A program made the position numbers and the translations under genes. A stretch of 64,000 nt of DNA. Source: Candidatus Undinarchaeota archaeon. Its GTDB lineage: Archaea; SpSt-1190; JASMDC01. This document shows, one piece after another, positions 34,884 through 46,084 of the stretch. The stretch is from contig CAZFHY010000001.1 of NCBI GenBank assembly GCA_964519305.1, positions 96,001 to 160,000 of the forward strand, read 5' to 3'. Position 1 is the stretch's first letter, and every line of letters begins with the position of its first letter. A model generated the notes under the pieces. The model did not search any database, was not told the DNA's origin, and saw only the letters and a list, made by a program, of their open reading frames with translations.

Positions 34884-37730
34884 TCAGCCACCGTTCTGGC
34901 GCGGCCCCCGGCCTTCCTGCGAGCCTCGCCACTCGGGTGCATGATACCAATTGCTACGACCAGCGGCGGCGTTCTGACCGGGAGCGCTTGCAGGATAGTA
35001 CCCGGCTGTGTGCTGGTAAGTCGTGCGGCCCGTCGTGCCCTCTGTCGATGGGACTGTCTTGGCCACTCCATGTGAACTGCGTGCTAACGCAACGGAACCG
35101 GCGATCACTACCAGTAGGACCACACCGATGAAGATGCTCAGCCAGTTGATGGCACTGTCTGCACCACCGAGCCCGCCGATCCGCACCTCGGGTCGCGGAT
35201 TCAGTTCCTTGCACCGCCATCCCGGGAGCTTGACGAAGGTTATCTTCATGTCGCTCATGGCAGCGTTGTCCACCTGCTTCTTCACCGAGAAGGCGAGGTC
35301 CACCTTCTTCTTCCCCTTGAGACGGTCAACGCTCCACAGTACGACAGGGTCCTCAACTACAACCTTCACGTCCTGCTTGAACGTGAGGCCCTTCACGCTC
35401 TCGGCGAAGGTCTTGGGTATTACCTGCACTATACAGAAGTCCTCCTGGTCCTCTTCTTTTGTGTTCTCCACCGTTAGCTTCACCATGGTCGCTGTGGCCG
35501 CCTCTCCATCCGTCAACTCGCTGCCCTCCGAGTCGACCTGGACCACCTGACCGGTCACGCTCACGTCCATGACGGTACGGATGTTCTTCGAGGTCTCGAG
35601 CGCGTTCTCGGTCAGCTCCTCGGCGTCACCTCCGAACAGCTTCGAAAGATCGAACAGCTCCATTACGGCCGGGATGGCCACTGCCTCCGACTCCTGCTGA
35701 GGTACGAACTCGTGACGTGTAAGCGTGGTCACGCCCGTGTCGTCGTTCCGTACCGCATCGACCTCGTCCCTGATGCGGCCGATGGTCTCCCGGGCACCGG
35801 CGAGGTCCCCGTCCCCCAGCGACCGCCACGCGGCCTGCACCAGCCCATCGAGGTCAGGAGGTCGCTCTCCCTTGAGCGCCATCAGCACGAGCATCTTATC
35901 CTGGAACACAGGAGAGGTCAGGAGCCTTTCGAGCTCTAGCAGGTCGGCGCAGTTGTCGTTACACTCCACGGGCATCCCCGTGCACACCGCTGCGCATCCC
36001 GCCTCCTTGGCCATATCAGAGATTGCCGCTGCCAGCGGATCAGATGGGACGCTCGCAGGAGCACCTCCTTGGTCGAGGGTCGATTCGTCCAGCGTCGGCC
36101 GAGGTCCTGGCGTGCTGGCCGGACCGTCCTCAGGTTCGTCTGGTGAGGGCCCCGTACCGTCATCGGGAGCATCGGTGGGTGCGGCCGTGGCGACGGTTGT
36201 GGGCACAGTGGTGGCGTACTGTGTCGGGACAGTGGTGGGAACTAGGGTCACATCACCGTCAGGGAGGGTCGTGGGCACAACGGTCGGGACCGTGGTTGGG
36301 ACCAAGCTAGGGATGATGGTGGGGACCACGGTCGGGAGCGGAGTGGGGACCGGAGTAGGATTTGGGTCAGGTGTCGCTCCCGGTGAAGGGTCCGGGTACG
36401 GGTTCGGATCATCCTCCGGATCATCCTCCGGATCGGGTTCGGGTGTGGTTTCTGGGATGGTGGTCGCTGCCGGAGGCGTACCCTCGGGCTCCTCCTCGGG
36501 AAGGATCGTGACGTTGGGGAGCGGAAGAGGTGTCGGCTCGGCCATGTCATCGGGATCGGGTGTAGGTGTAGCAATCTCCAGAGGGCCTGCCCGGGGCCAG
36601 AACTCCACGTGGTAGAGGTCCGAGTGCCCGCGTGACGTTCCCTGCCAGACTATGTGCACTTTCCCCCGGTACGTGACGGCGATGGATGGGTTCGAGTCCT
36701 CTCCCTCGGCATCGCTCACCTGCTGTACGTCCCAGGTCCGGCCCAGATTGCTGGAGAAACCGTACACAATCTCGGAGGACATGCTCGTCCTGTGCTCGGC
36801 GGTCAGGAGCACACGCTTTTTCCCGGATGTGACGATCGAAGGACGGGACAGCTCCATCCCAGCTACTGCGTTCATCTCCCAGGTCGCACCACTGTTGCTT
36901 GAGCGGGCGATGTTGACCGTGATAGGACAGTAGGTCGCATTGCATGCAGGGTCCATCCCCTCCCAGGCCACGTACACGTCGTTACCGCGCACGGCTATGT
37001 CGGGATTCGTCTGACGCAAGGTGTCGGCGGTGATGTTGTGCAGGTCCCAGCTCAGCCCATTATCCTCAGAGACCGCGTGCAGGATGTCAACATCGATGCC
37101 CTCGTGTCGTTGCCAAGCCACGTGAAGGCGCCCGTTAGTTGTCACGCCCACCACTGGATTGCTATCGTCCGAGACCACTGTCGAGACCGCGCCTTGTGTC
37201 CAGGTCCGCCCCTTGTCCCAGGAGCTCGCCACCATGATGTCCCGTGCCCCCTCGGGCCCACGCTCCCAGGTCATGTGTACATCGCCGTTCGAGCGGACGA
37301 AGAGGGCAGGATTGACATCGAGCTCAGGCCCGTCGGTCACCCTCGTCACCGCCCAAGACTTCCCACCATCCGTGGAACGACCATGGAATATGTCGAATCC
37401 CTCATCCTGGACCTGGTACCATGCAACATGGATGGCCCATTTATGATGGTCGACGGCATGACGCGGGCCCAGCCCACAGGCGCTACCCCCTCCAGTCACC
37501 CTATGGGTCCGCCATTTCTTGGAGCGGAAGTCCTTGACGTACACGTTGAAGGTGTCGTCCCAGTCGGTGAACCAAGCGATCGTACGTTTGTGCTTGGAGT
37601 GATCTATGTTGATGATGGGGAAGAGATTGGCCCCCGCGTTGGAGGTGAGCCGGACAATCTTGCCGTCCTTGGCAGATCCCAGGAGGAGGAGCAAGACCAT
37701 AACCAGGACGAGTTGTCGTGTGCTCACCAT
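34884..37730 (-). CDS. Surface protein: BNR/Asp-box beta-propeller, Pro/Thr-rich linker, C-terminal domain and TM anchor
   Basis: Five SxDxGxxW-type boxes (STDGGKSW, SWDKGRTW, SEDNGLSW, SSNSGATW, SSNLGRTW); PTTVPT repeats; TM. Confidence 0.8.
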   Translation of the reverse strand: MVSTRQLVLVMVLLLLLGSAKDGKIVRLTSNAGANLFPIINIDHSKHKRTIAWFTDWDDTFNVYVKDFRSKKWRTHRVTGGGSACGLGPRHAVDHHKWAIHVAWYQVQDEGFDIFHGRSTDGGKSWAVTRVTDGPELDVNPALFVRSNGDVHMTWERGPEGARDIMVASSWDKGRTWTQGAVSTVVSDDSNPVVGVTTNGRLHVAWQRHEGIDVDILHAVSEDNGLSWDLHNITADTLRQTNPDIAVRGNDVYVAWEGMDPACNATYCPITVNIARSSNSGATWEMNAVAGMELSRPSIVTSGKKRVLLTAEHRTSMSSEIVYGFSSNLGRTWDVQQVSDAEGEDSNPSIAVTYRGKVHIVWQGTSRGHSDLYHVEFWPRAGPLEIATPTPDPDDMAEPTPLPLPNVTILPEEEPEGTPPAATTIPETTPEPDPEDDPEDDPNPYPDPSPGATPDPNPTPVPTPLPTVVPTIIPSLVPTTVPTVVPTTLPDGDVTLVPTTVPTQYATTVPTTVATAAPTDAPDDGTGPSPDEPEDGPASTPGPRPTLDESTLDQGGAPASVPSDPLAAAISDMAKEAGCAAVCTGMPVECNDNCADLLELERLLTSPVFQDKMLVLMALKGERPPDLDGLVQAAWRSLGDGDLAGARETIGRIRDEVDAVRNDDTGVTTLTRHEFVPQQESEAVAIPAVMELFDLSKLFGGDAEELTENALETSKNIRTVMDVSVTGQVVQVDSEGSELTDGEAATATMVKLTVENTKEEDQEDFCIVQVIPKTFAESVKGLTFKQDVKVVVEDPVVLWSVDRLKGKKKVDLAFSVKKQVDNAAMSDMKITFVKLPGWRCKELNPRPEVRIGGLGGADSAINWLSIFIGVVLLVVIAGSVALARSSHGVAKTVPSTEGTTGRTTYQHTAGYYPASAPGQNAAAGRSNWYHAPEWRGSQEGRGPRQNGG
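36170..36570 (-). repeat. Coding low-complexity repeat (PTxVPT / PEDD / PDP linker)
   Basis: Imperfect 12-nt periodicity encoding VPTT and PEDD repeats. Confidence 0.7.
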
Positions 37731-38900: not shown

Positions 38901-40121
38901 CTAGAAGAACCTCAATCTCGCGAGGTTGACGACCGCCATACTGAGCGGGAACCCGACGGTCGACAGGAACTTCGTCAGCGTCTCCTTGTCGAAAGGCCAG
39001 ACGGGCATATCGCTGGCCTTCCTGTACAGCTCTTCAAGGTCATTGAGCTTTCTGAGCTTCTCGGGATCCACGTCCCGGTCCTCGTCAAGGACCTCGTTGT
39101 ATATCGATTCGTAATAGGAATTGGTCTTCCGGCTCAGCCGGTCGAGCAGGTCGATCTTCTTCTCGCTCATGAGATGGTGGACCTTATGGAGGGGGTAGAA
39201 GAAGAGGAGCGTGGCGAGGGCCATGTAGACCACTATCCCGGAATAGACCACCCACAACTGGGACGGGCTAGCGGTGAACAGCCCGACGCTGAGCCAGATA
39301 CCGACGGCCAGGAGGACCGAGTCGACGGAGAAGCTCAGGTCGCCCAGAGGCTTCAGTCCGCCGGAATGGTCGGGGTGAAGCGGCTGGACGTTCAGGTCGA
39401 ACTCATCGCTCAGCCGTCTCAGGTAGAACACGGTCACGAGCACCTTCCATACAATGAGAGCGAAGAAGACCGCTATGAGCATGTCCCCGAGGACGTAGGA
39501 GCCTCTCGTCACCGGGAACCGGTCCACGGTGCACCAGTCGTACTCGCCTACGGGGATGCTGAAGTTGACCACACCGACGATGAGCGCGAACACGAGAGCG
39601 AGGAGGTATGCGTCCTTGTGATTGAGACGTCGCTCGAAGTCCTTGAGGAAGCTTCGGTACTCCTCGCGGAGCTGCTCGAGGTCCGAACTATCCCCCTCCT
39701 TCAGAGAGATTGTCTGCTGGTCCCACAATCGGTCGTAGCAGAGATTGGTATTGCGGAAAAGACGCTTGATCAGAGGGATGGAGAGGATGAGTATCAGATA
39801 GCCCGGAACGCGCCATCGCGATGAACAGGGCAGGTGCCACAACGCCCAAGCTCCAGAGGCGAGGCGACTCCCCCCGAAGGGAGCGATGCTACGGGCGCTC
39901 GTGCCAGTGGCATCGGCCATCTGTTCCGCGGTGGGGAGGCCGTGGTACCCGATTATGGATAGCAGGATGCATAGGAAAAGAACGACAATGAGATGGAAAT
40001 TATCCATGAGCCCCTTGACGTAGGGATTGTCGACCAACGTGATCTCATAGAAGATGCCAGCTACATCGTCATCTTTTAGATCCAAGGTAGATACCAACCC
40101 CCGCAATAAGGTCCTGAACAC
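38901..40121 (-). CDS. Polytopic membrane protein
   Basis: Multiple TMs; motifs PLHPDHSGGLKPLG and MPVWPFD. Confidence 0.7.
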   Translation of the reverse strand: MFRTLLRGLVSTLDLKDDDVAGIFYEITLVDNPYVKGLMDNFHLIVVLFLCILLSIIGYHGLPTAEQMADATGTSARSIAPFGGSRLASGAWALWHLPCSSRWRVPGYLILILSIPLIKRLFRNTNLCYDRLWDQQTISLKEGDSSDLEQLREEYRSFLKDFERRLNHKDAYLLALVFALIVGVVNFSIPVGEYDWCTVDRFPVTRGSYVLGDMLIAVFFALIVWKVLVTVFYLRRLSDEFDLNVQPLHPDHSGGLKPLGDLSFSVDSVLLAVGIWLSVGLFTASPSQLWVVYSGIVVYMALATLLFFYPLHKVHHLMSEKKIDLLDRLSRKTNSYYESIYNEVLDEDRDVDPEKLRKLNDLEELYRKASDMPVWPFDKETLTKFLSTVGFPLSMAVVNLARLRFF

Positions 40122-40166: not shown

Positions 40167-40370
40167 ATGGAAAAGGGTTCTATCAAGATCGTGGGATACG
40201 GCGTACACTCCGGCGAGGGCCGGCTCAGCTGGACATGCAACTGCGAGGGCGAGCACGCGCCCCATCACGGGCTCCAGATGCAGTACGGGCTGCTGGCGAA
40301 GATCCGCTGCCCCAAGTGTGGGACCGAGGCCACTATACTTGGCGACGAGGTCCCCAAGATCCTCGAGTAG
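40167..40370 (+). CDS. Small zinc-ribbon protein
   Basis: WTCNC...RCPKCG; CTATAAAAAA about 35 nt upstream. Confidence 0.55.
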   Translation: MEKGSIKIVGYGVHSGEGRLSWTCNCEGEHAPHHGLQMQYGLLAKIRCPKCGTEATILGDEVPKILE

Positions 40371-40434
40371 TTAACAGGCCTGACGGCTCCTTCAACGGAC
40401 AGGTGACGGTCCGAGCCTTAGCGCTAATAAGCTA

Positions 40435-42891
40435 CTACCGGACGCTCGCCTCGAACTTCGCGCGGAAGTCCTTGTCCTGGCTGAACCGGGTTATGTAGTC
40501 CATGAACACCGGTAGGCTAAGGCTGCCCGGCTGCTGTTTGTGCCTGTAGTACAGGCTCTCCAGGAACTTCATCCGGACGTACCGCTCCCGTTCGTACTCC
40601 TGGTCGGTCATGTCCATGTTGTACTCGGCGATACGTCTCTCCAGGGGCGAGAGGCCTTTCACCATGCGCACCACCTGCTTGGACTTGGTGTCGTACTTGT
40701 ACACCTGCAGGAGCGGGGGGATGTCCAGTTCGGCGGGCTTGGACTTGTCGATCTCCACGATCTCGATGACGCGACGGAGCTGAACACGCTTGCGCTCCTT
40801 GGAGTCGTAGAACGAGAGTCGCCGCTGTACGAGGATGATGTCCAGGGTCTGGATATCCATGGGAGCGATGTTCATGGGAGGATTCTTCATGCGCTTGGCG
40901 GCCGACGTGGCGTCCAGTGCGTGGAACGTGCACATACATCCGCGTGCCTGTCCGGCCAGCACCGAGTTGATGAAGGCCCGCGCCTCTTCGCCCGAACGCA
41001 CCTCACCCACGATGACCCGGTCAGGCCGCATACGCAGAGTATCCTCCAGCAGGTCCTCCATCCCGATCTCGGCCTGGGGAACGGTGACGACCCGGGCCTG
41101 GTGGTTGTGGGGCAGGTTGATCTCGGGGGTTGACTCCAGAATGATGATGCGCTCGTCGGGCGGGATGAACGTCGAGATGGCATTGAGGGTGGTGGTCTTT
41201 CCCGAGCCGGTGTTTCCGCCGATGAGCATGGAGATCTCGTTCTCCAATGTCAGCCACATGTAGGTGAGCGCGTCGATCGACATGGTACCGAACTCGGCGA
41301 TCTCGATGGGGGTGAGCGGGTTCGCCCGGAACTTGCGGATGGTGATGAGCGAACCGGTCAGGGTCATGGGACTGATGCACGCATGGAGACGGGAGCCGTC
41401 GGGAAGCCGGGTGTTGACCCGAGGGTGCATATCATCGATCTTTGCCCCCGGCTGGGATCGCACCATGCGCTCGATGATGGCCCGCACCTCCATCTGACCT
41501 CCCTTGTCGGGATTGAAGAAGATGTTGGTCTTGAGCATCCCGTACTTGCGGTGGTAGACGTAGATAGGCCGCGCCTGGCCCACACCGATACCCATTACCT
41601 CCTCCAGGGCGTCGTCCTTGAGCAGGAGGTCGAAGGGACCGAACCCCGTGGAGTTGAGGGTCGCGAGCATGGAGAGAGGGTCCAGCTTCTCCGGGTCCAC
41701 GCCAGCACCCATGTACCGGGCCACCTCTAGGATGAACGCTTTCATCTGTTCGTACGTGGACGTGTTGAGCGAACCCGACTCGATGAACCGGTCGATGGAG
41801 CGCTTGATGATGGTACGTTCCACATCAGAGATCGAGGGTATGACGTTCACGTAGTACACGGGCTTGGGTTCGCTGGGGACCATGGCGATGGAACCGAAGG
41901 TACGGGCGGTGCCCTCGTCATTGATCACGATTGGCTCGAGCTCACGGATCGACTGGGCAGGGAAGACCGACAGCGACCATGTACCCGTGTCGACGGCAGC
42001 GCTGACCTGCTCGGCATGGACGGCCTCGATGGCGTTGAAGCCCTGGTTGGCGCATTCCTCTAGACAGAGGGGATGGTCGGCGACGCCGTAGCAGATGTCG
42101 CACTTCCGGGCGATGTCCCCGAGCACCCAGATGGAATCGTAGGGGCATGCTTTGACGCACTCGCCGCAGCCAGTACACCTGTCCTCCTGCACGCTGAGGA
42201 TGTCCTTGCCCGGCCCCACGGGCACGATGGCCTTCTCGGGGCACGCCTTGGCACAGTCCGCGGTCTCGGGCGTACAATGCTTGCACATGATGGGTGCATT
42301 GTCGAATTTGATCGCCTGCTTGGGGCACACAGGGACGCACTTGGCGCATCGCGTGCATGAGTTGTAGTTGATCGCGATCTTTGAGGACATGGGTGCCGAG
42401 GTGTTGGCAATCTTTATATGGGGTGTGTTTTCGGGCAGTTCCGATGGTGGGGATTCATCCCCCTTGCCCTTCTTCTTCCCGGTCTTTGCCTTCTGCGTCT
42501 GTCCTTTCCCCTTCGCAGGAGGCGCTTCCTTCTTCGGCGGGGCAGGGCTAGGAGCAGGGGGCGGGGTCTTTTTCTTTGGAGGCACCTCCTTCGGCGGTGT
42601 CGGCTTCGGGACCGGAGGCGGGGATTCCTTCTTGGAGGGTGCATTCTTCGGCGGTGAGGGCTTGGGTGCGGGCGGAGTCGTCGCCTCCGGAGGCGGAGAC
42701 TGTTCCTCCTTCTTGGGAGGTACCTTCTTCTTAGGAGTTGTCGGGATGGATACCCGTCGGGATTGTTTCTTTGTGCTGATGGCGTCGGGCATCCGTTCGA
42801 TACGCTGGAGCTTGGCGCCCTTCGCGCCTGCAGGCAGCCGTGGTGGTGGTGGTGGAGGTGCCTTCTTCTTCCCCTTCTTTTCCGGGCTCAT
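40435..42891 (-). CDS. VirB11/TadA/CpaF-family secretion ATPase with fused multi-[4Fe-4S] ferredoxin and Pro/Lys-rich N-terminus
   Basis: Walker A GGNTGSGKTT, LRMRPDRVIVGEVR, TFHA, RLPDGSR, ITIRKF; four Cys motifs upstream. Confidence 0.88.
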   Translation of the reverse strand: MSPEKKGKKKAPPPPPPRLPAGAKGAKLQRIERMPDAISTKKQSRRVSIPTTPKKKVPPKKEEQSPPPEATTPPAPKPSPPKNAPSKKESPPPVPKPTPPKEVPPKKKTPPPAPSPAPPKKEAPPAKGKGQTQKAKTGKKKGKGDESPPSELPENTPHIKIANTSAPMSSKIAINYNSCTRCAKCVPVCPKQAIKFDNAPIMCKHCTPETADCAKACPEKAIVPVGPGKDILSVQEDRCTGCGECVKACPYDSIWVLGDIARKCDICYGVADHPLCLEECANQGFNAIEAVHAEQVSAAVDTGTWSLSVFPAQSIRELEPIVINDEGTARTFGSIAMVPSEPKPVYYVNVIPSISDVERTIIKRSIDRFIESGSLNTSTYEQMKAFILEVARYMGAGVDPEKLDPLSMLATLNSTGFGPFDLLLKDDALEEVMGIGVGQARPIYVYHRKYGMLKTNIFFNPDKGGQMEVRAIIERMVRSQPGAKIDDMHPRVNTRLPDGSRLHACISPMTLTGSLITIRKFRANPLTPIEIAEFGTMSIDALTYMWLTLENEISMLIGGNTGSGKTTTLNAISTFIPPDERIIILESTPEINLPHNHQARVVTVPQAEIGMEDLLEDTLRMRPDRVIVGEVRSGEEARAFINSVLAGQARGCMCTFHALDATSAAKRMKNPPMNIAPMDIQTLDIILVQRRLSFYDSKERKRVQLRRVIEIVEIDKSKPAELDIPPLLQVYKYDTKSKQVVRMVKGLSPLERRIAEYNMDMTDQEYERERYVRMKFLESLYYRHKQQPGSLSLPVFMDYITRFSQDKDFRAKFEASVR

Positions 42892-43601
42892 GCGGAGAAC
42901 CCGGCCTCCTTCTCCATCTCCACGAGCTCCGAATCGAGCTGTTCGTCGTCGACCTTCACTGAAGCGGATTGGATGTCCCGCTTCTTGTCGCGGAGGTCTG
43001 CGAGCTTTTCTTCATAGCCCTCAAGGTCACGGTCGATGAGGGACAGCGTCTCCACGATGAGGTGGAAAGGATCCTCGTCCTGGAGCACCTCTTCCCGACG
43101 GCCCAAGCTCTCGGTCTCCTCCCTGGATATCTTCAGAGACTGCTGATGGTTGGCGATGCCTTCCACCATCAACCGACATTTCTTGACCAGGTTCTGCAGG
43201 TTCTCTTTGCTCTTGAGCTTGGCCTTTATTGCGAGCTTGTTCATGATGAAGGTCCTCGCCCCAGTGGCGTTCCCGCCCCGGAGGGTCATGAACGCCTCCT
43301 GATGGAAGTGCATGATCTGGTTGTTGTAGGTCACGTCCTTCTGCCGGATAATGTCGATCTCTTCCTCCGTCTTATCGACGAAGTCCTCGACCTCGATCCG
43401 CCTCTCCTTGAGCCGGTCATCGAGCGCCTCTATGTTCTGGATGATCTCGTAGGCGCGCGGGTCCGTGAAGGAACCACCCTTCCTCTTCTTCTTCAGAAGG
43501 AGGATGAGCACGATGGCGAGCACCCCGATCCCCCCAACTCCGAGGAAAAGGTAGAGCGGATCGATACCCAAGATGGGGTCCATGCCTTCAAAGGGGTTCA
43601 T
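42888..43601 (-). CDS. Membrane-anchored coiled-coil protein, PspA/Vipp1/ESCRT-III-like (start refined to MNPFEG)
   Basis: N-terminal TM plus KKKRK; long helices; AFMTLRGGNATGARTFIMNK hairpin; C-terminal VDDEQLDSELVEMEKE; ATGA overlap with the ATPase. Confidence 0.6.
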   Translation of the reverse strand: MNPFEGMDPILGIDPLYLFLGVGGIGVLAIVLILLLKKKRKGGSFTDPRAYEIIQNIEALDDRLKERRIEVEDFVDKTEEEIDIIRQKDVTYNNQIMHFHQEAFMTLRGGNATGARTFIMNKLAIKAKLKSKENLQNLVKKCRLMVEGIANHQQSLKISREETESLGRREEVLQDEDPFHLIVETLSLIDRDLEGYEEKLADLRDKKRDIQSASVKVDDEQLDSELVEMEKEAGFSA

Positions 43602-43635
43602 GCGCTCGGACCTCGGTGTTGAAATGATATAAAGC

Positions 43636-45798
43636 CTATGTGCCGGTCCTGCGGAGCACGAGCGCCGTTCGGGACGGTATGTACACCTGCACGGACTGTG
43701 CCTGATCGTGGGCCGGGACCTCTTGGCTGGACAGTGCGATCGAGTCATCTACACGCCCATGACCGCCGAGGTCGCTCGCATCGCTATCCAGCACGATGCT
43801 GTACTCGCCCGCCTCGGGTACACCGAACCGGTAGTCCGGGATGGATGCCGATGGATTGAAGTTGAAGATGAAGACGAGCCCCCCCCGCTCGAAAATGAGC
43901 ACGTTGTTGGCCTCGTCCACGTTGAGCCGACGGGCAGGGCCCGCGGCAAGCATGCTAGTCTCAGTGGCGAGCCCGATCATGACCTTGTCGAACGCGAGCA
44001 GGTATCTGTAGCGGAGGTCCTTGTCATCGGCCAGCGACCACTGGCGGCGGGCGTGCTTGTAGCTCCAGCTGTTGCCCTCTCGTGGGAAATCGATCCACTC
44101 CGGATGGCCGAACTCGTTGCCTATGAAGTTAAGGTACCCTTCACCGCCCAGGGCGAGCGTGATGAGCCGGATCATCTTGTGGAGGGCCATACCGCGGTCG
44201 ACGCGAAGGCTCTGATCGCCGGTGCGCATGAACCAGTACATGTCCGCATCCATGAGCCAGAACGCGAGGGTCTTGTCCCCCACCAGCGCCTGATCGTGGC
44301 TCTCCGCGTAGGCTATGGTCCGCTCTGACGGACGCCGGTTGGTGAGCACGTTCCACAGCTCGTTCATGCTCCAGTTCTCGTCGGGAACGTGCTTTAACAG
44401 CTTGATCCAGTAGTCCGGGATGCCCATGCCCAACCGGTAGTCGAAACCAAGGCCTCCCTCGATGACAGCACGTCCGAGTCCCGGCATACCCGACATATCC
44501 TCGGCGATGAGCCAGGAACAGGGTTTCACCTCCTTACAGATAGTGGCAGCCAGCTGGATATACGTGATCGCCTCATGGTCGATGTTGTGCTTGAAGTACA
44601 TGTCGTAGTGTGTGAAGTCCACCCCGAACCCGTGATGTAGGTACATCATGGAGGTGATGCCGTCGAACCGGAATCCATCGAAATGATACTCTTCCAGCCA
44701 GTACCGCAGATTGGACAGGAGGAAGTGGACTACCTCGATCTTCCCGTAGTTGAATAGCATGGAGTCCCAAGATATGTGTTCCCCGCGAGGACCCTCGTGG
44801 AAGAACTGCCATACGGTGCCGTCGAACCGGTTGATACCCTCTGCCAGGTTCTTGACGGCATGGGAGTGCACGAGGTCGAGCAGCACTCGGATGCCTAGGC
44901 GGTGAGCGGTGTTCACTAGGTACTTCAGGTCCTCAGGAGTGCCGAACCTCGATGAGGGGGCGAAGAAGTTCGAGACGTGATAACCGAAGGAGCCGTAATA
45001 GGGGTGCTCCTGGACGGCCATGAGCTGGATTGCGTTGTACCCCAGCTCCTTGATTCGAGGAAGGACGTTGTCCGCGAACTCGCGATAGGTGCCGATGCCC
45101 TCCCGTTCCTGGGCCATTCCTACATGTGCTTCATAGATGACGAGCGGCTCGTCCTTCTGTGGCTTGAATCTGCCGTCGGTCCACTTGAACGGCTTCGGGG
45201 GCAGCCATACCTGGCCTGCGAAGTCCTTGGTATCATCGTCCTGTACAGCACGACGGACATAGAGCGGGATACGGTCCATGCTCCCCTCCTCGGAGACCAC
45301 GTGGACCTTGACCTTGCTACCATGGGTGAACGTCTTCTTGTACTCCTTCCGGGGCAGGAAGATCTCCCACTGGCCCATCTCCTTCTGCTCCAGTGGATGT
45401 GATGTGCGGTCCCAGCCGTTGAAGTCGCCTGTGAGATAGAGGGCATTGGCATTGGGCGCCCACTCGCGGTACACCCACCCGTCCTTCACCTCGTGGATGC
45501 CGAACCAGAGGTGGCCGGAGGCGAACTCCGTGAGAGAGGAGTTATGTGCGTAGATGTGGTCGAGCATGCGTTCGTAGCGTTCATGACGGAGCCTCAGCTC
45601 ACGCTTGTAAGGCTCGAGCCATGGATCGACGACGATGAGACCGGTGCCGTCGGTGGGCAGGGAAGGTCTTTCCGGCTCCTGTGCTAGAGCGTTCGCTGGG
45701 GCCTTACGAGCCTTGGACGGCGGTTTCGTATTCACCACCCGCTCGATGCGGGGTCCTTTGACCCGTATCTCCGTCCTAGATCGCTTCTTCCCCGTCAC
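43636..45798 (-). CDS. glgB: 1,4-alpha-glucan branching enzyme, GH13 (eukaryote/Bacteroidetes-type)
   Basis: YREWAPNA, IYEAHVGM, EHPYYGSFGYHV, LDLVHSHA, FDGFRFDGITSM, IAEDMSG, YAESHDQALVGDKT, GNEFGHPEWIDFPR. Confidence 0.93.
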   Translation of the reverse strand: MTGKKRSRTEIRVKGPRIERVVNTKPPSKARKAPANALAQEPERPSLPTDGTGLIVVDPWLEPYKRELRLRHERYERMLDHIYAHNSSLTEFASGHLWFGIHEVKDGWVYREWAPNANALYLTGDFNGWDRTSHPLEQKEMGQWEIFLPRKEYKKTFTHGSKVKVHVVSEEGSMDRIPLYVRRAVQDDDTKDFAGQVWLPPKPFKWTDGRFKPQKDEPLVIYEAHVGMAQEREGIGTYREFADNVLPRIKELGYNAIQLMAVQEHPYYGSFGYHVSNFFAPSSRFGTPEDLKYLVNTAHRLGIRVLLDLVHSHAVKNLAEGINRFDGTVWQFFHEGPRGEHISWDSMLFNYGKIEVVHFLLSNLRYWLEEYHFDGFRFDGITSMMYLHHGFGVDFTHYDMYFKHNIDHEAITYIQLAATICKEVKPCSWLIAEDMSGMPGLGRAVIEGGLGFDYRLGMGIPDYWIKLLKHVPDENWSMNELWNVLTNRRPSERTIAYAESHDQALVGDKTLAFWLMDADMYWFMRTGDQSLRVDRGMALHKMIRLITLALGGEGYLNFIGNEFGHPEWIDFPREGNSWSYKHARRQWSLADDKDLRYRYLLAFDKVMIGLATETSMLAAGPARRLNVDEANNVLIFERGGLVFIFNFNPSASIPDYRFGVPEAGEYSIVLDSDASDLGGHGRVDDSIALSSQEVPAHDQAQSVQVYIPSRTALVLRRTGT

Positions 45799-45918: not shown

Positions 45919-45993
45919 GGGCCTGTGGTCTAGTTGGTCCATGACATCCGCCTTACTAGCGGGGGATCGCCGGTTCGAATCCGGCCGGGCCCA
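45919..45993 (+). tRNA. tRNA-Val(TAC)
   Basis: Acceptor GGGCCTG/CGGGCCC-A; anticodon stem TCCGC/GCGGG with loop CT-TAC-TA; T-arm GCCGG TTCGAAT CCGGC; CCA not encoded. Confidence 0.9.
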
Positions 45994-46007
45994 TAGGCCG
46001 TCGCGGA

Positions 46008-46084
46008 GCCGATGTGGTGTAGCCTGGTTAGCACCGGGGACTGTGGATCCCCGAGCTCGGGTTCAAATCCCGGCATCGGCCCCA
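46008..46084 (+). tRNA. tRNA-His(GTG)
   Basis: GCCGATG/CATCGGC-C-CCA; anticodon arm GGGGA CT-GTG-GA TCCCC; TTCAAAT T-loop. Confidence 0.95.

Follow-up and report, generated by a model that had tools for sequence, protein, structure and literature searches.

The locus described here raises the question of why a motor ATPase of the type IV filament (T4F) and secretion superfamily should carry a domain that resembles the electron-transfer subunit of a redox enzyme. The gene lies in a stretch of 64,000 nucleotides from a Candidatus Undinarchaeota archaeon (GCA_964519305.1, contig CAZFHY010000001.1), which corresponds to C1:96001-160000 of the source genome G000 and is called the window in the following. 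It occupies positions 40435..42891 of the window on the minus strand, stop codon included, and encodes 818 amino acids (aa) according to the list of open reading frames (ORFs), the translation and Pfam. An earlier interpretation made from the letters of the DNA (the sequence-only reading) had proposed a pilus or secretion ATPase fused to a ferredoxin behind a disordered Pro/Lys-rich arm of ~150 aa, and this layout is confirmed with an arm of 168 aa. To our knowledge, no studied T4F motor carries a redox cofactor. We regard it as nearly certain that the protein is a polyferredoxin joined N-terminally, via a short flexible linker, to a hexameric ATPase of the T4F/secretion superfamily of the afGspE/FlaI kind.

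The three parts follow each other in one chain. The basic Pro/Lys-rich arm comprises residues 1-168 (42388..42891, minus strand) and contains 27% Pro and 20% Lys with a net charge of +26. It is predicted to be disordered, as its predicted local distance difference test (pLDDT) score is <50 in the AlphaFold2 model, which was built on an alignment of 30 homologs and has a mean pLDDT of 76.8. Four indels separate the arm from those of two congeneric sequences (3, 3, 18 and 18 nt), every one in frame, and the ATG of the gene overlaps the stop codon of the upstream gene (ATGA). The arm is therefore translated sequence and not the product of a mis-called start. It is restricted to the genus-level group, since among the aligned homologs only P0002 has one and the ~70% identical P0003 and P0004 do not. 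The polyferredoxin domain, residues 169-293 (42013..42387, minus strand), contains 16 Cys in four groups and is delimited by motifs, conservation, fold and Pfam, where Fer4 reaches 51.4 bits and several Fer4 families overlap at ~199-284. Alignments to 2oap_1 and 4ihq_A place the N-terminal region of the ATPase at residues ~309-520 (41332..41967, minus strand), consisting of a beta domain, three helices and the N-domain and preceded by the flexible linker 289-296. The RecA-like ATPase domain, residues ~526-745 (40657..41316, minus strand), is identified by its motifs, its invariant catalytic columns and a T2SSE match (PF00437, 128.4 bits versus a cut-off of 24.9, residues 476-693). Finally, residues 749-818 (40438..40647, minus strand) form a C-terminal helical extension as in afGspE/FlaI, with helices at 749-817 in the model. 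The model is confident from residue 169 on, except for the low-pLDDT linker, and the ferredoxin block scores 67-91.

Such a fusion could in principle result from a chimeric assembly, from read-through of two genes or from a decaying pseudogene, and the sequence-only reading had itself named an assembly artefact and poor conservation of the cysteines as what would overturn it. A single open frame without a stop runs across arm, ferredoxin and ATPase. Contigs from four public DNA runs of two studies each span 40300-43700 unbroken, with 0 differences, gaps or joints. Because these runs may be the source of the assembly itself, the run-level contigs alone are not independent support, and this is the only caveat that speaks for an artefact. 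Independently of these runs, the fused form is present in the congener genome G001 (92% identity, over the full length), in metagenome contig L110 (96%), in the database proteins P0003 and P0004 (~70%, 654 and 652 aa) and in dozens of distant homologs. Across an alignment of 30 homologs that reaches down to 31% identity, every member has the layout with matching cysteines, and each of the 16 Cys is either invariant or shows at least 90% conservation. This recurrence of layout and cysteines is far beyond chance, and neither of the two objections holds. Collectively, the four-run coverage and the related sequences with the same architecture lead us to reject the artefact, whose probability we consider negligible. 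We conclude that the gene is genuine and intact and that selection acts on it.

The cysteines of the ferredoxin domain are arranged as expected for four clusters. Group I, CTRCAKCVPVC(P), covers residues 179-189 (42325..42357, minus strand) with the spacing C-x2-C-x2-C-x3-C-P, and group II, CKHCTPETADCAKAC(P), covers residues 203-217 (42241..42285, minus strand) with C-x2-C-x6-C-x3-C-P, where C203, C206 and C213 are invariant. Group III, CTGCGECVKAC(P), at residues 239-249 (42145..42177, minus strand) repeats the spacing of group I, and group IV, CDICYGVADHPLCLEEC, at residues 264-280 (42052..42102, minus strand) reads C-x2-C-x8-C-x3-C with C264, C267 and C276 invariant. Before residue 505, these 16 are the only cysteines in the protein, and the motifs cited in the sequence-only reading are all found among them.

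When the model was compared with 48,161 representative solved chains, residues 167-293 matched chains from an electron-bifurcating tungsten aldehyde oxidoreductase (9mqx_E, Z 13.8, root-mean-square deviation (rmsd) 5.4), a hydrogen-dependent CO2 reductase (HDCR; 7qv7_G, Z 13.3, rmsd 2.1), the small subunit of WOR5 (6x6u_B, Z 12.5, rmsd 2.0), the tungsten aldehyde oxidoreductase AorA of A. aromaticum (8c0z_F, Z 11.9, rmsd 2.4), ArrB of arsenate respiratory reductase (Arr; 6cz7_B, Z 11.2, rmsd 2.8) and PsrB of polysulfide reductase (2vpw_B, Z 10.8, rmsd 3.0). The superpositions align 116-132 residues, which is most of each small subunit. By sequence, the best solved relatives of residues 197-285 are iron-sulfur (Fe-S) subunits of dimethyl sulfoxide (DMSO)-reductase-type enzymes, at 1e-6 and weaker. 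AorA (8C0Z) is described in passages of PMC10413684 as a double-ferredoxin fold with four Fe4S4 clusters forming an electron-conducting nanowire, and HycB3/4 are built alike (PMC10413684). Thus, both spacing and predicted fold (Z 10.8-13.8) agree with the earlier claim that the four motifs resemble a four-cluster subunit of the DmsB/NrfC type. The curated polyferredoxin families were not reached, with Fer4_11 at 25.4 versus 26.2, DmsB TIGR02951 at 33.5 versus 214.1 and HydN at 32.5 versus 260 bits. The domain is, judging from the model, a four-cluster wire fold, but outside the DmsB, HydN and Fer4_11 families, and it is predicted to bind four [4Fe-4S] clusters. The four Cys groups and the fold are shared with the four-cluster subunits of AorA, HDCR (7QV7 G), WOR5, 9MQX_E, ArrB and PsrB, members of the wide DmsB/NrfC family. 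However, those polyferredoxins are separate subunits on a catalytic redox enzyme, while the domain here is fused to a motor ATPase without an adjacent redox enzyme. Unlike those subunits, it also lacks the filament-forming C-terminal helix, because the ATPase comes next in the chain.

The ATPase part is complete. Superposition on FlaI of S. acidocaldarius (4ihq_A, Z 36.6) covers residues 314-818 with 469 aligned positions, and that on afGspE of A. fulgidus (2oap_1, Z 35.7) covers residues 309-818 with 471, i.e., the ATPase has its own N-terminal region and C-terminal helices up to residue 818. Foldseek also returned an afGspE/FlaI-type fold (E 7e-39), and the C-domain of PilT (2eyu_B) aligns to residues 526-738. 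The closest solved sequences are 2OAP (1e-56), FlaI (5e-44) and CpaF (3e-36). The protein stays below the cut-offs of the FlaI/ArlI equivalog NF058587 (222.2 versus 550 bits), TadA/CpaF TIGR03819 (151.5 versus 373.15) and VirB11 TIGR02788 (114.9 versus 249.95), and no archaellum genes were seen nearby, where the neighbors code for a GH13 enzyme, a coiled-coil protein and proteins of unassigned function. Consequently, the sequence-only reading was right that the ATPase is complete, while the kinship it assigned to VirB11/TadA has to be replaced by afGspE/FlaI. Walker A (GNTGSGKT, 559-566), the Asp box (ERIIILESTPE, at 580) and Walker B (DRVIVGE, 624-630) are shared with afGspE (2OAP) and FlaI/ArlI (4II7/4IHQ), and their columns are invariant in the 30 homologs. 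The solved afGspE and FlaI have neither an Fe-S domain nor a disordered arm, and in the sequence and structure searches the Fe-S part was not matched by any chain of a solved secretion or pilus ATPase.

The canonical His box of secretion ATPases is TGH...HA with two histidines, as in afGspE and FlaI. In the window protein, the box AGQARGCMCTFHA (646-658) has Gln in place of the first His and retains the second. G647, Q648, H657 and A658 are invariant in 30/30 homologs, and the 24 fused representative clusters of the wider search described below have Q in 18 and H in none, the box being undetected by the pattern in the other six. AGQ-type boxes also occur in four unfused archaeal ATPases (L031, L033, L034, L035); bacterial CpaF-like matches read TGH. 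Among the sequences fetched from the DPANN-type phylum of genome G027, AGQ is present in the four fused genes, and two unfused paralogs have TGH. Since the Gln is invariant in the family and also found in unfused members, AGQ..TFHA is a clade variant and not a sign of decay. The box had been read correctly from the sequence, but it is a clade-wide trait and not peculiar to this gene.

The fused form recurs outside this genus. Within the query and its 120 best matches, 46 of 121 sequences are fused, counted as having at least two N-terminal Cys motifs. A search of 1.84 billion representatives with the Fer4-to-N-domain segment alone yielded, among the 150 clusters listed, 24 T2SSE-type ATPases with at least two Cys motifs, 12 of these with four. 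Three of 41 sampled genomes carry the fusion (G000 itself, G001 and G027), and in the class of the organism it is found in 2/17 genomes, both in its genus. In the phylum of G027 the count is 20/31 genomes, based on a Fer4 match within an open frame of 535-590 aa and checked by sequence in 5 of the 20 (G027 and four others). The homologs carry source labels such as Diapherotrites, Iainarchaeum, Micrarchaeota and plain 'archaeon', and the databases hold fused proteins under automatic names only. The metagenome contig search returned four loci, all from this genus-level group. A contig search with the family alignment gave 79 loci through generic ATPase motifs, and the absence of fusion from the 43 in which a T2SSE ORF could be parsed is an outcome of the choice of rows and not of rarity. 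The Fer4 plus T2SSE architecture, which the sequence-only reading had suggested looking for across archaea, is therefore present there, and it constitutes a conserved family that occurs commonly among DPANN-type archaea. The phylum of G027 also has a recurrent open frame of ~588-607 aa that matches only residues 40-94 of the query segment with one Fer4 motif pair (e.g., G044:C5:8274-8456, G046:C41:17606-17764 and G057:C2:51640-51828), which we take from its size and position to be possibly ABCE1.

A FastTree phylogeny built on the ATPase core groups the window protein with P0002-P0004 and the paralog P0005 in a five-member clade (98% local support). Its sister (99%) consists of 27 long unfused proteins, some labelled Hydrothermarchaeales, and the clade stands apart from an 89-row DPANN-type group. 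Because the tree is only midpoint-rooted and many forks are open, we refrain from proposing a donor or a single origin. Among the unfused proteins, P0006-P0028 and L038 26-3592 are secretion ATPases of ~1,050-1,190 aa with PF23989 and no Fer4, and one of the long unfused ATPases reads TGQNG in its His box.

The source genome of this marine archaeon (3.63 Mb, 42 contigs, 99.8% complete) holds a second fused gene. The congener genome has 3.8 Mb and the 15 class-mates outside the genus have 0.6-1.2 Mb; the close homologs carry the source labels 'Undinarchaeales archaeon' and 'Methanopyri archaeon'. The paralog (C1:44462-46678) is 48% identical over residues 153-811 and has 16 Cys in the same layout. 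Immediately after it come two T2SSF genes, which code for 425 and 300 aa (L028 8691-9968 and 9996-10898, i.e., G000:C1 46690-47967 and 47995-48897), and its metagenome relatives (L111, L112) retain the order of ATPase and platform. A T2SSF gene also comes after the fused gene of G027. Two platform genes are given in passages of PMC13705601 as the hallmark of T4F 'System 1' (Epd-like), and in G000 this feature is found at the paralog locus only. Over the cut-off, the genome contains six T2SSE and seven T2SSF matches, none of the latter anywhere in the 64-kb window. The gene has been duplicated, with the paralog as the likely assembly motor and the window copy as an orphan paralog. According to parts of PMC13705601, a complete archaeal T4F system comprises ATPase, platform, pilin and class III signal peptidase, and four homologs of the A24 prepilin peptidase were found over the cut-off in the genome. 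Together with the platform genes behind the paralog and behind the G027 gene, these peptidases speak for a connection of the family with filaments.

Two further groups of genes lie near the paralog. A 391-aa membrane polyferredoxin (Fer4 and Fer4_5; G000:C1:52435-53610, L028 14435-15610, minus strand) is encoded ~4.7 kb from the platform genes on the opposite strand, and could be a redox neighbor of the paralog or a coincidence. Upstream of the paralog, on the opposite strand (L028 2339-6674, minus strand; L111, L113 341-5946), are genes for proteins of 521 and ~600-670 aa, each bearing a signal-like segment at the N-terminus and a hydrophobic one at the C-terminus, accompanied by a 342-413-aa protein with a GLGTFG motif. 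The three have no Pfam match, are kept in the metagenome relatives and are candidate filament-associated surface proteins.

The window copy has a different neighbor. The gene directly upstream (42888..43598, minus strand) encodes a 236-aa membrane protein with one transmembrane (TM) helix, the motif KKKRKGG and a long, highly conserved coiled coil, which by the positive-inside rule is probably cytoplasmic. With the overlap of its stop and the ATPase start, the window ATPase is translationally coupled to it, and the gene order is common to the congener and L110. The protein is lineage-restricted, with only eight homologs in 5.8 billion proteins (71-93% identical) and no family over the cut-off in Pfam, NCBIfam or PHROGs. 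Its model is all-helical (mean pLDDT 49.8), and an atlas gives a weak 0.82 lead to PspA/IM30-type clusters. A predicted complex of ATPase residues 169-818 with coiled-coil residues 43-236 scored 0.00, and as it was run with no controls this is no evidence either way. The layout recalls ArlX, the membrane-anchored coiled-coil scaffold of an archaeal motor, and we consider the protein a candidate partner of the ATPase.

Downstream of the window ATPase there is a 313-bp gap with a convergent 67-aa ORF, followed by a 406-aa membrane ORF. The 67-aa ORF (40167-40370, plus strand) is Cys-rich with CxC and CPKC motifs, zinc-ribbon-like, and has no family match. The 406-aa ORF (38901-40121) was considered as a hidden platform protein and rejected, as it has no T2SSF or other family match and is separated from the ATPase by the gap and the convergent ORF. 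Further away, 34884-37730 (minus strand) encodes 948 aa in which a signal peptide precedes BNR/sialidase-like repeats, a long linker rich in Pro, Thr and Asp, and a TM anchor at the C-terminus. This is likely a surface protein and is conserved in the congener. On the other side, a branching-enzyme-like GH13 protein that also has CBM48 and an alpha-amylase C domain (43636-45798, minus strand) is encoded immediately upstream of the coiled-coil gene and in its orientation, and beyond it are two tRNA genes (45919-46081, plus strand).

The sequence-only reading had stated that characterized pilus motors do not carry Fe-S domains. For the motors themselves this agrees with the solved secretion and pilus ATPase chains, none of which aligns with the Fe-S part, but a separate Fe-S protein of a pilus system is already known. 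AapX (arCOG07320) is described in passages of PMC13705601 as an Fe-S protein of function unknown in Aap pilus loci of Sulfolobales and others. It is the closest connection in the literature searched between Fe-S proteins and archaeal pili. Like the domain described here, AapX links Fe-S clusters genetically to a T4F machine of archaea; however, it is a separate gene product while the Fe-S domain here is fused to the ATPase, and the two are likened by description only. The ferredoxin-fused ATPase is not described in the literature searched, including the main texts of PMC8561730 and of two surveys of archaeal T4F and type IV pilus systems, PMC4858521 and PMC13705601, and is not mentioned in the parts searched of the supplements of PMC4858521 and PMC13705601. 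The fusion is thus a variant of T4F motor ATPases that we found undescribed in this literature and that occurs beyond this window.

What might the clusters do? The N-terminal sensor domains of bacterial ATPases of the PilB/MshE type would be comparable, and the central carrier of energy in fermentative archaea of the DPANN type is reduced ferredoxin. Passages in PMC8561730 agree with this role of ferredoxin, and parts of PMC13705601 propose that N-terminal extensions specific to a subsystem serve archaeal T4F ATPases as interaction interfaces. Next to the fused gene, neither the window nor L010, L028 or L114-L118 encodes a redox enzyme (molybdo- or tungstopterin enzyme, hydrogenase or similar), the neighbors in L114-L118 being listed but unannotated. 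Because N-terminal extensions are proposed to serve as interaction surfaces, the domain is dispensable for the basic motor, no redox enzyme is adjacent and fermentative metabolism centers on ferredoxin, we favor a gate. The Fe-S clusters would act as the input module of the ATPase, and their redox, oxygen or occupancy state, probably set by the pool of reduced ferredoxin, would alter the packing of the N-terminal domain or the docking of a partner. This would in turn switch the activity of the hexamer, and hence filament assembly, on or off. The low-pLDDT linker 289-296 fits here, as it makes the ferredoxin domain a module rather than part of a rigid core. We give about an even chance to the explanation as a whole, i.e., a fused motor ATPase with a cluster input module, and hold the sensor or gate mechanism itself to be slightly less likely than not. 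Redox gating is plausible, and like electron flow to a filament, the other function proposed by the sequence-only reading, it has the standing of a hypothesis.

Several observations weigh against such a gate. Four-cluster polyferredoxins are normally electron conduits and not sensors. On the ATPase-core tree, the fused state changes at least 13 times, at least six of these forced by well-supported branches, so the domain has been lost or gained repeatedly. Since close relatives work without it, it is dispensable for the basic motor. As the window has no platform gene, its fused ATPase can be connected with a filament only indirectly, and the pilin hidden Markov models PF07790 and PF04021 gave 0 matches in the genome, although these are weak models that match only 5/14 and 1/14 control genomes.

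An Fe-S domain could also act mechanically, with the clusters merely holding a rigid lever or docking knob through which movements of the ATPase reach the platform or another partner, without any redox role, as is thought for ABCE1/Rli1. This ribosome-recycling twin ATPase, universal in archaea, is a non-redox precedent for a P-loop ATPase with an N-terminal ferredoxin-like FeS domain. Its ATPase parts are of the ATP-binding cassette (ABC) type, not the secretion type, and are non-homologous to those here, i.e., the analogy is one of architecture only. ABCE1 binds two clusters and not four. In passages of PMC5105147, ATP-driven motion of its FeS domain is described to transfer mechanical energy, and the proposed interaction interfaces of T4F ATPases (parts of PMC13705601) would suit this explanation as well. 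Nevertheless, the window protein has a full four-cluster wire whose best structural matches are electron-transfer subunits instead of the two-cluster ABCE1 type, the flexible linker suits a lever poorly, and repeated loss or gain of the domain does not favor a structural element; we therefore consider a purely mechanical role unlikely. All strong structural neighbors of residues 167-293 are electron-transfer subunits, and the clusters might instead pass electrons from ferredoxin or a docked enzyme to a membrane partner, with ATP hydrolysis coupled to the flow or with the ring as scaffold for a redox enzyme. The membrane polyferredoxin ~4.7 kb from the platform genes of the paralog would be compatible with this, but it is on the opposite strand with unrelated genes between. 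Moreover, none of the loci examined has an adjacent redox enzyme, a heme-copper oxidase was not found in the genome, and we know of no electron acceptor in any T4F machine. An electron conduit thus seems decidedly improbable.

The remaining alternative concerns the window copy alone, which might be no filament motor but an ATPase recruited, together with its coiled-coil partner and arm, to another membrane process, for example secretion, DNA handling or envelope remodelling, leaving only the paralog to build filaments. The lack of a T2SSF gene in the window, the convergent small ORF and 313-bp gap before the next gene, the translational coupling to a lineage-restricted TM coiled-coil protein and an arm that is new to the genus-level group would all fit. 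Still, every catalytic and Cys position is retained, and outside its own cluster it is most closely related to the platform-linked paralog. According to passages of PMC13705601, T4F genes are commonly dispersed in the genomes of related archaea, and two platform-like genes elsewhere in the genome have no close T2SSE match, one of them under the Pfam cut-off. We rate this role as rather improbable. A bolder extension, which we regard as highly improbable, is that the six wires of the hexamer carry electrons of reduced ferredoxin to the membrane machine, so that electron flow and not ATP alone would drive or license filament assembly or the activity of the filament outside the cell, with the orphan as a second, antagonistic or specialized motor on the same platform. 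If the two-motor reading were true, it would be an archaeal counterpart of the extension/retraction ATPase pair, which archaea, as far as we know, are said to lack.

Gating of the ATPase by its clusters, the explanation we prefer, would have consequences for the biology of these organisms. T4F motors are among the best-studied prokaryotic machines, though little is understood of their regulation in archaea. Filament assembly in DPANN-type archaea is thought to underlie host attachment. The fused architecture extends beyond tiny symbiont genomes, as the genome here has 3.63 Mb, and the fused ATPase can duplicate into one platform-linked and one orphan copy. The orphan copy has acquired a long basic arm and, as a candidate, its own lineage-specific membrane partner. 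The fused ATPase may also illuminate AapX, the Fe-S protein of Sulfolobales pili. Collectively, the architecture suggests, as far as sequence and model allow, that filament assembly may be tied to the redox state of the cell, and a conserved four-cluster module on the ATPase would give a concrete handle on how archaeal filaments are regulated by ferredoxin redox state, oxygen or iron-sulfur supply.

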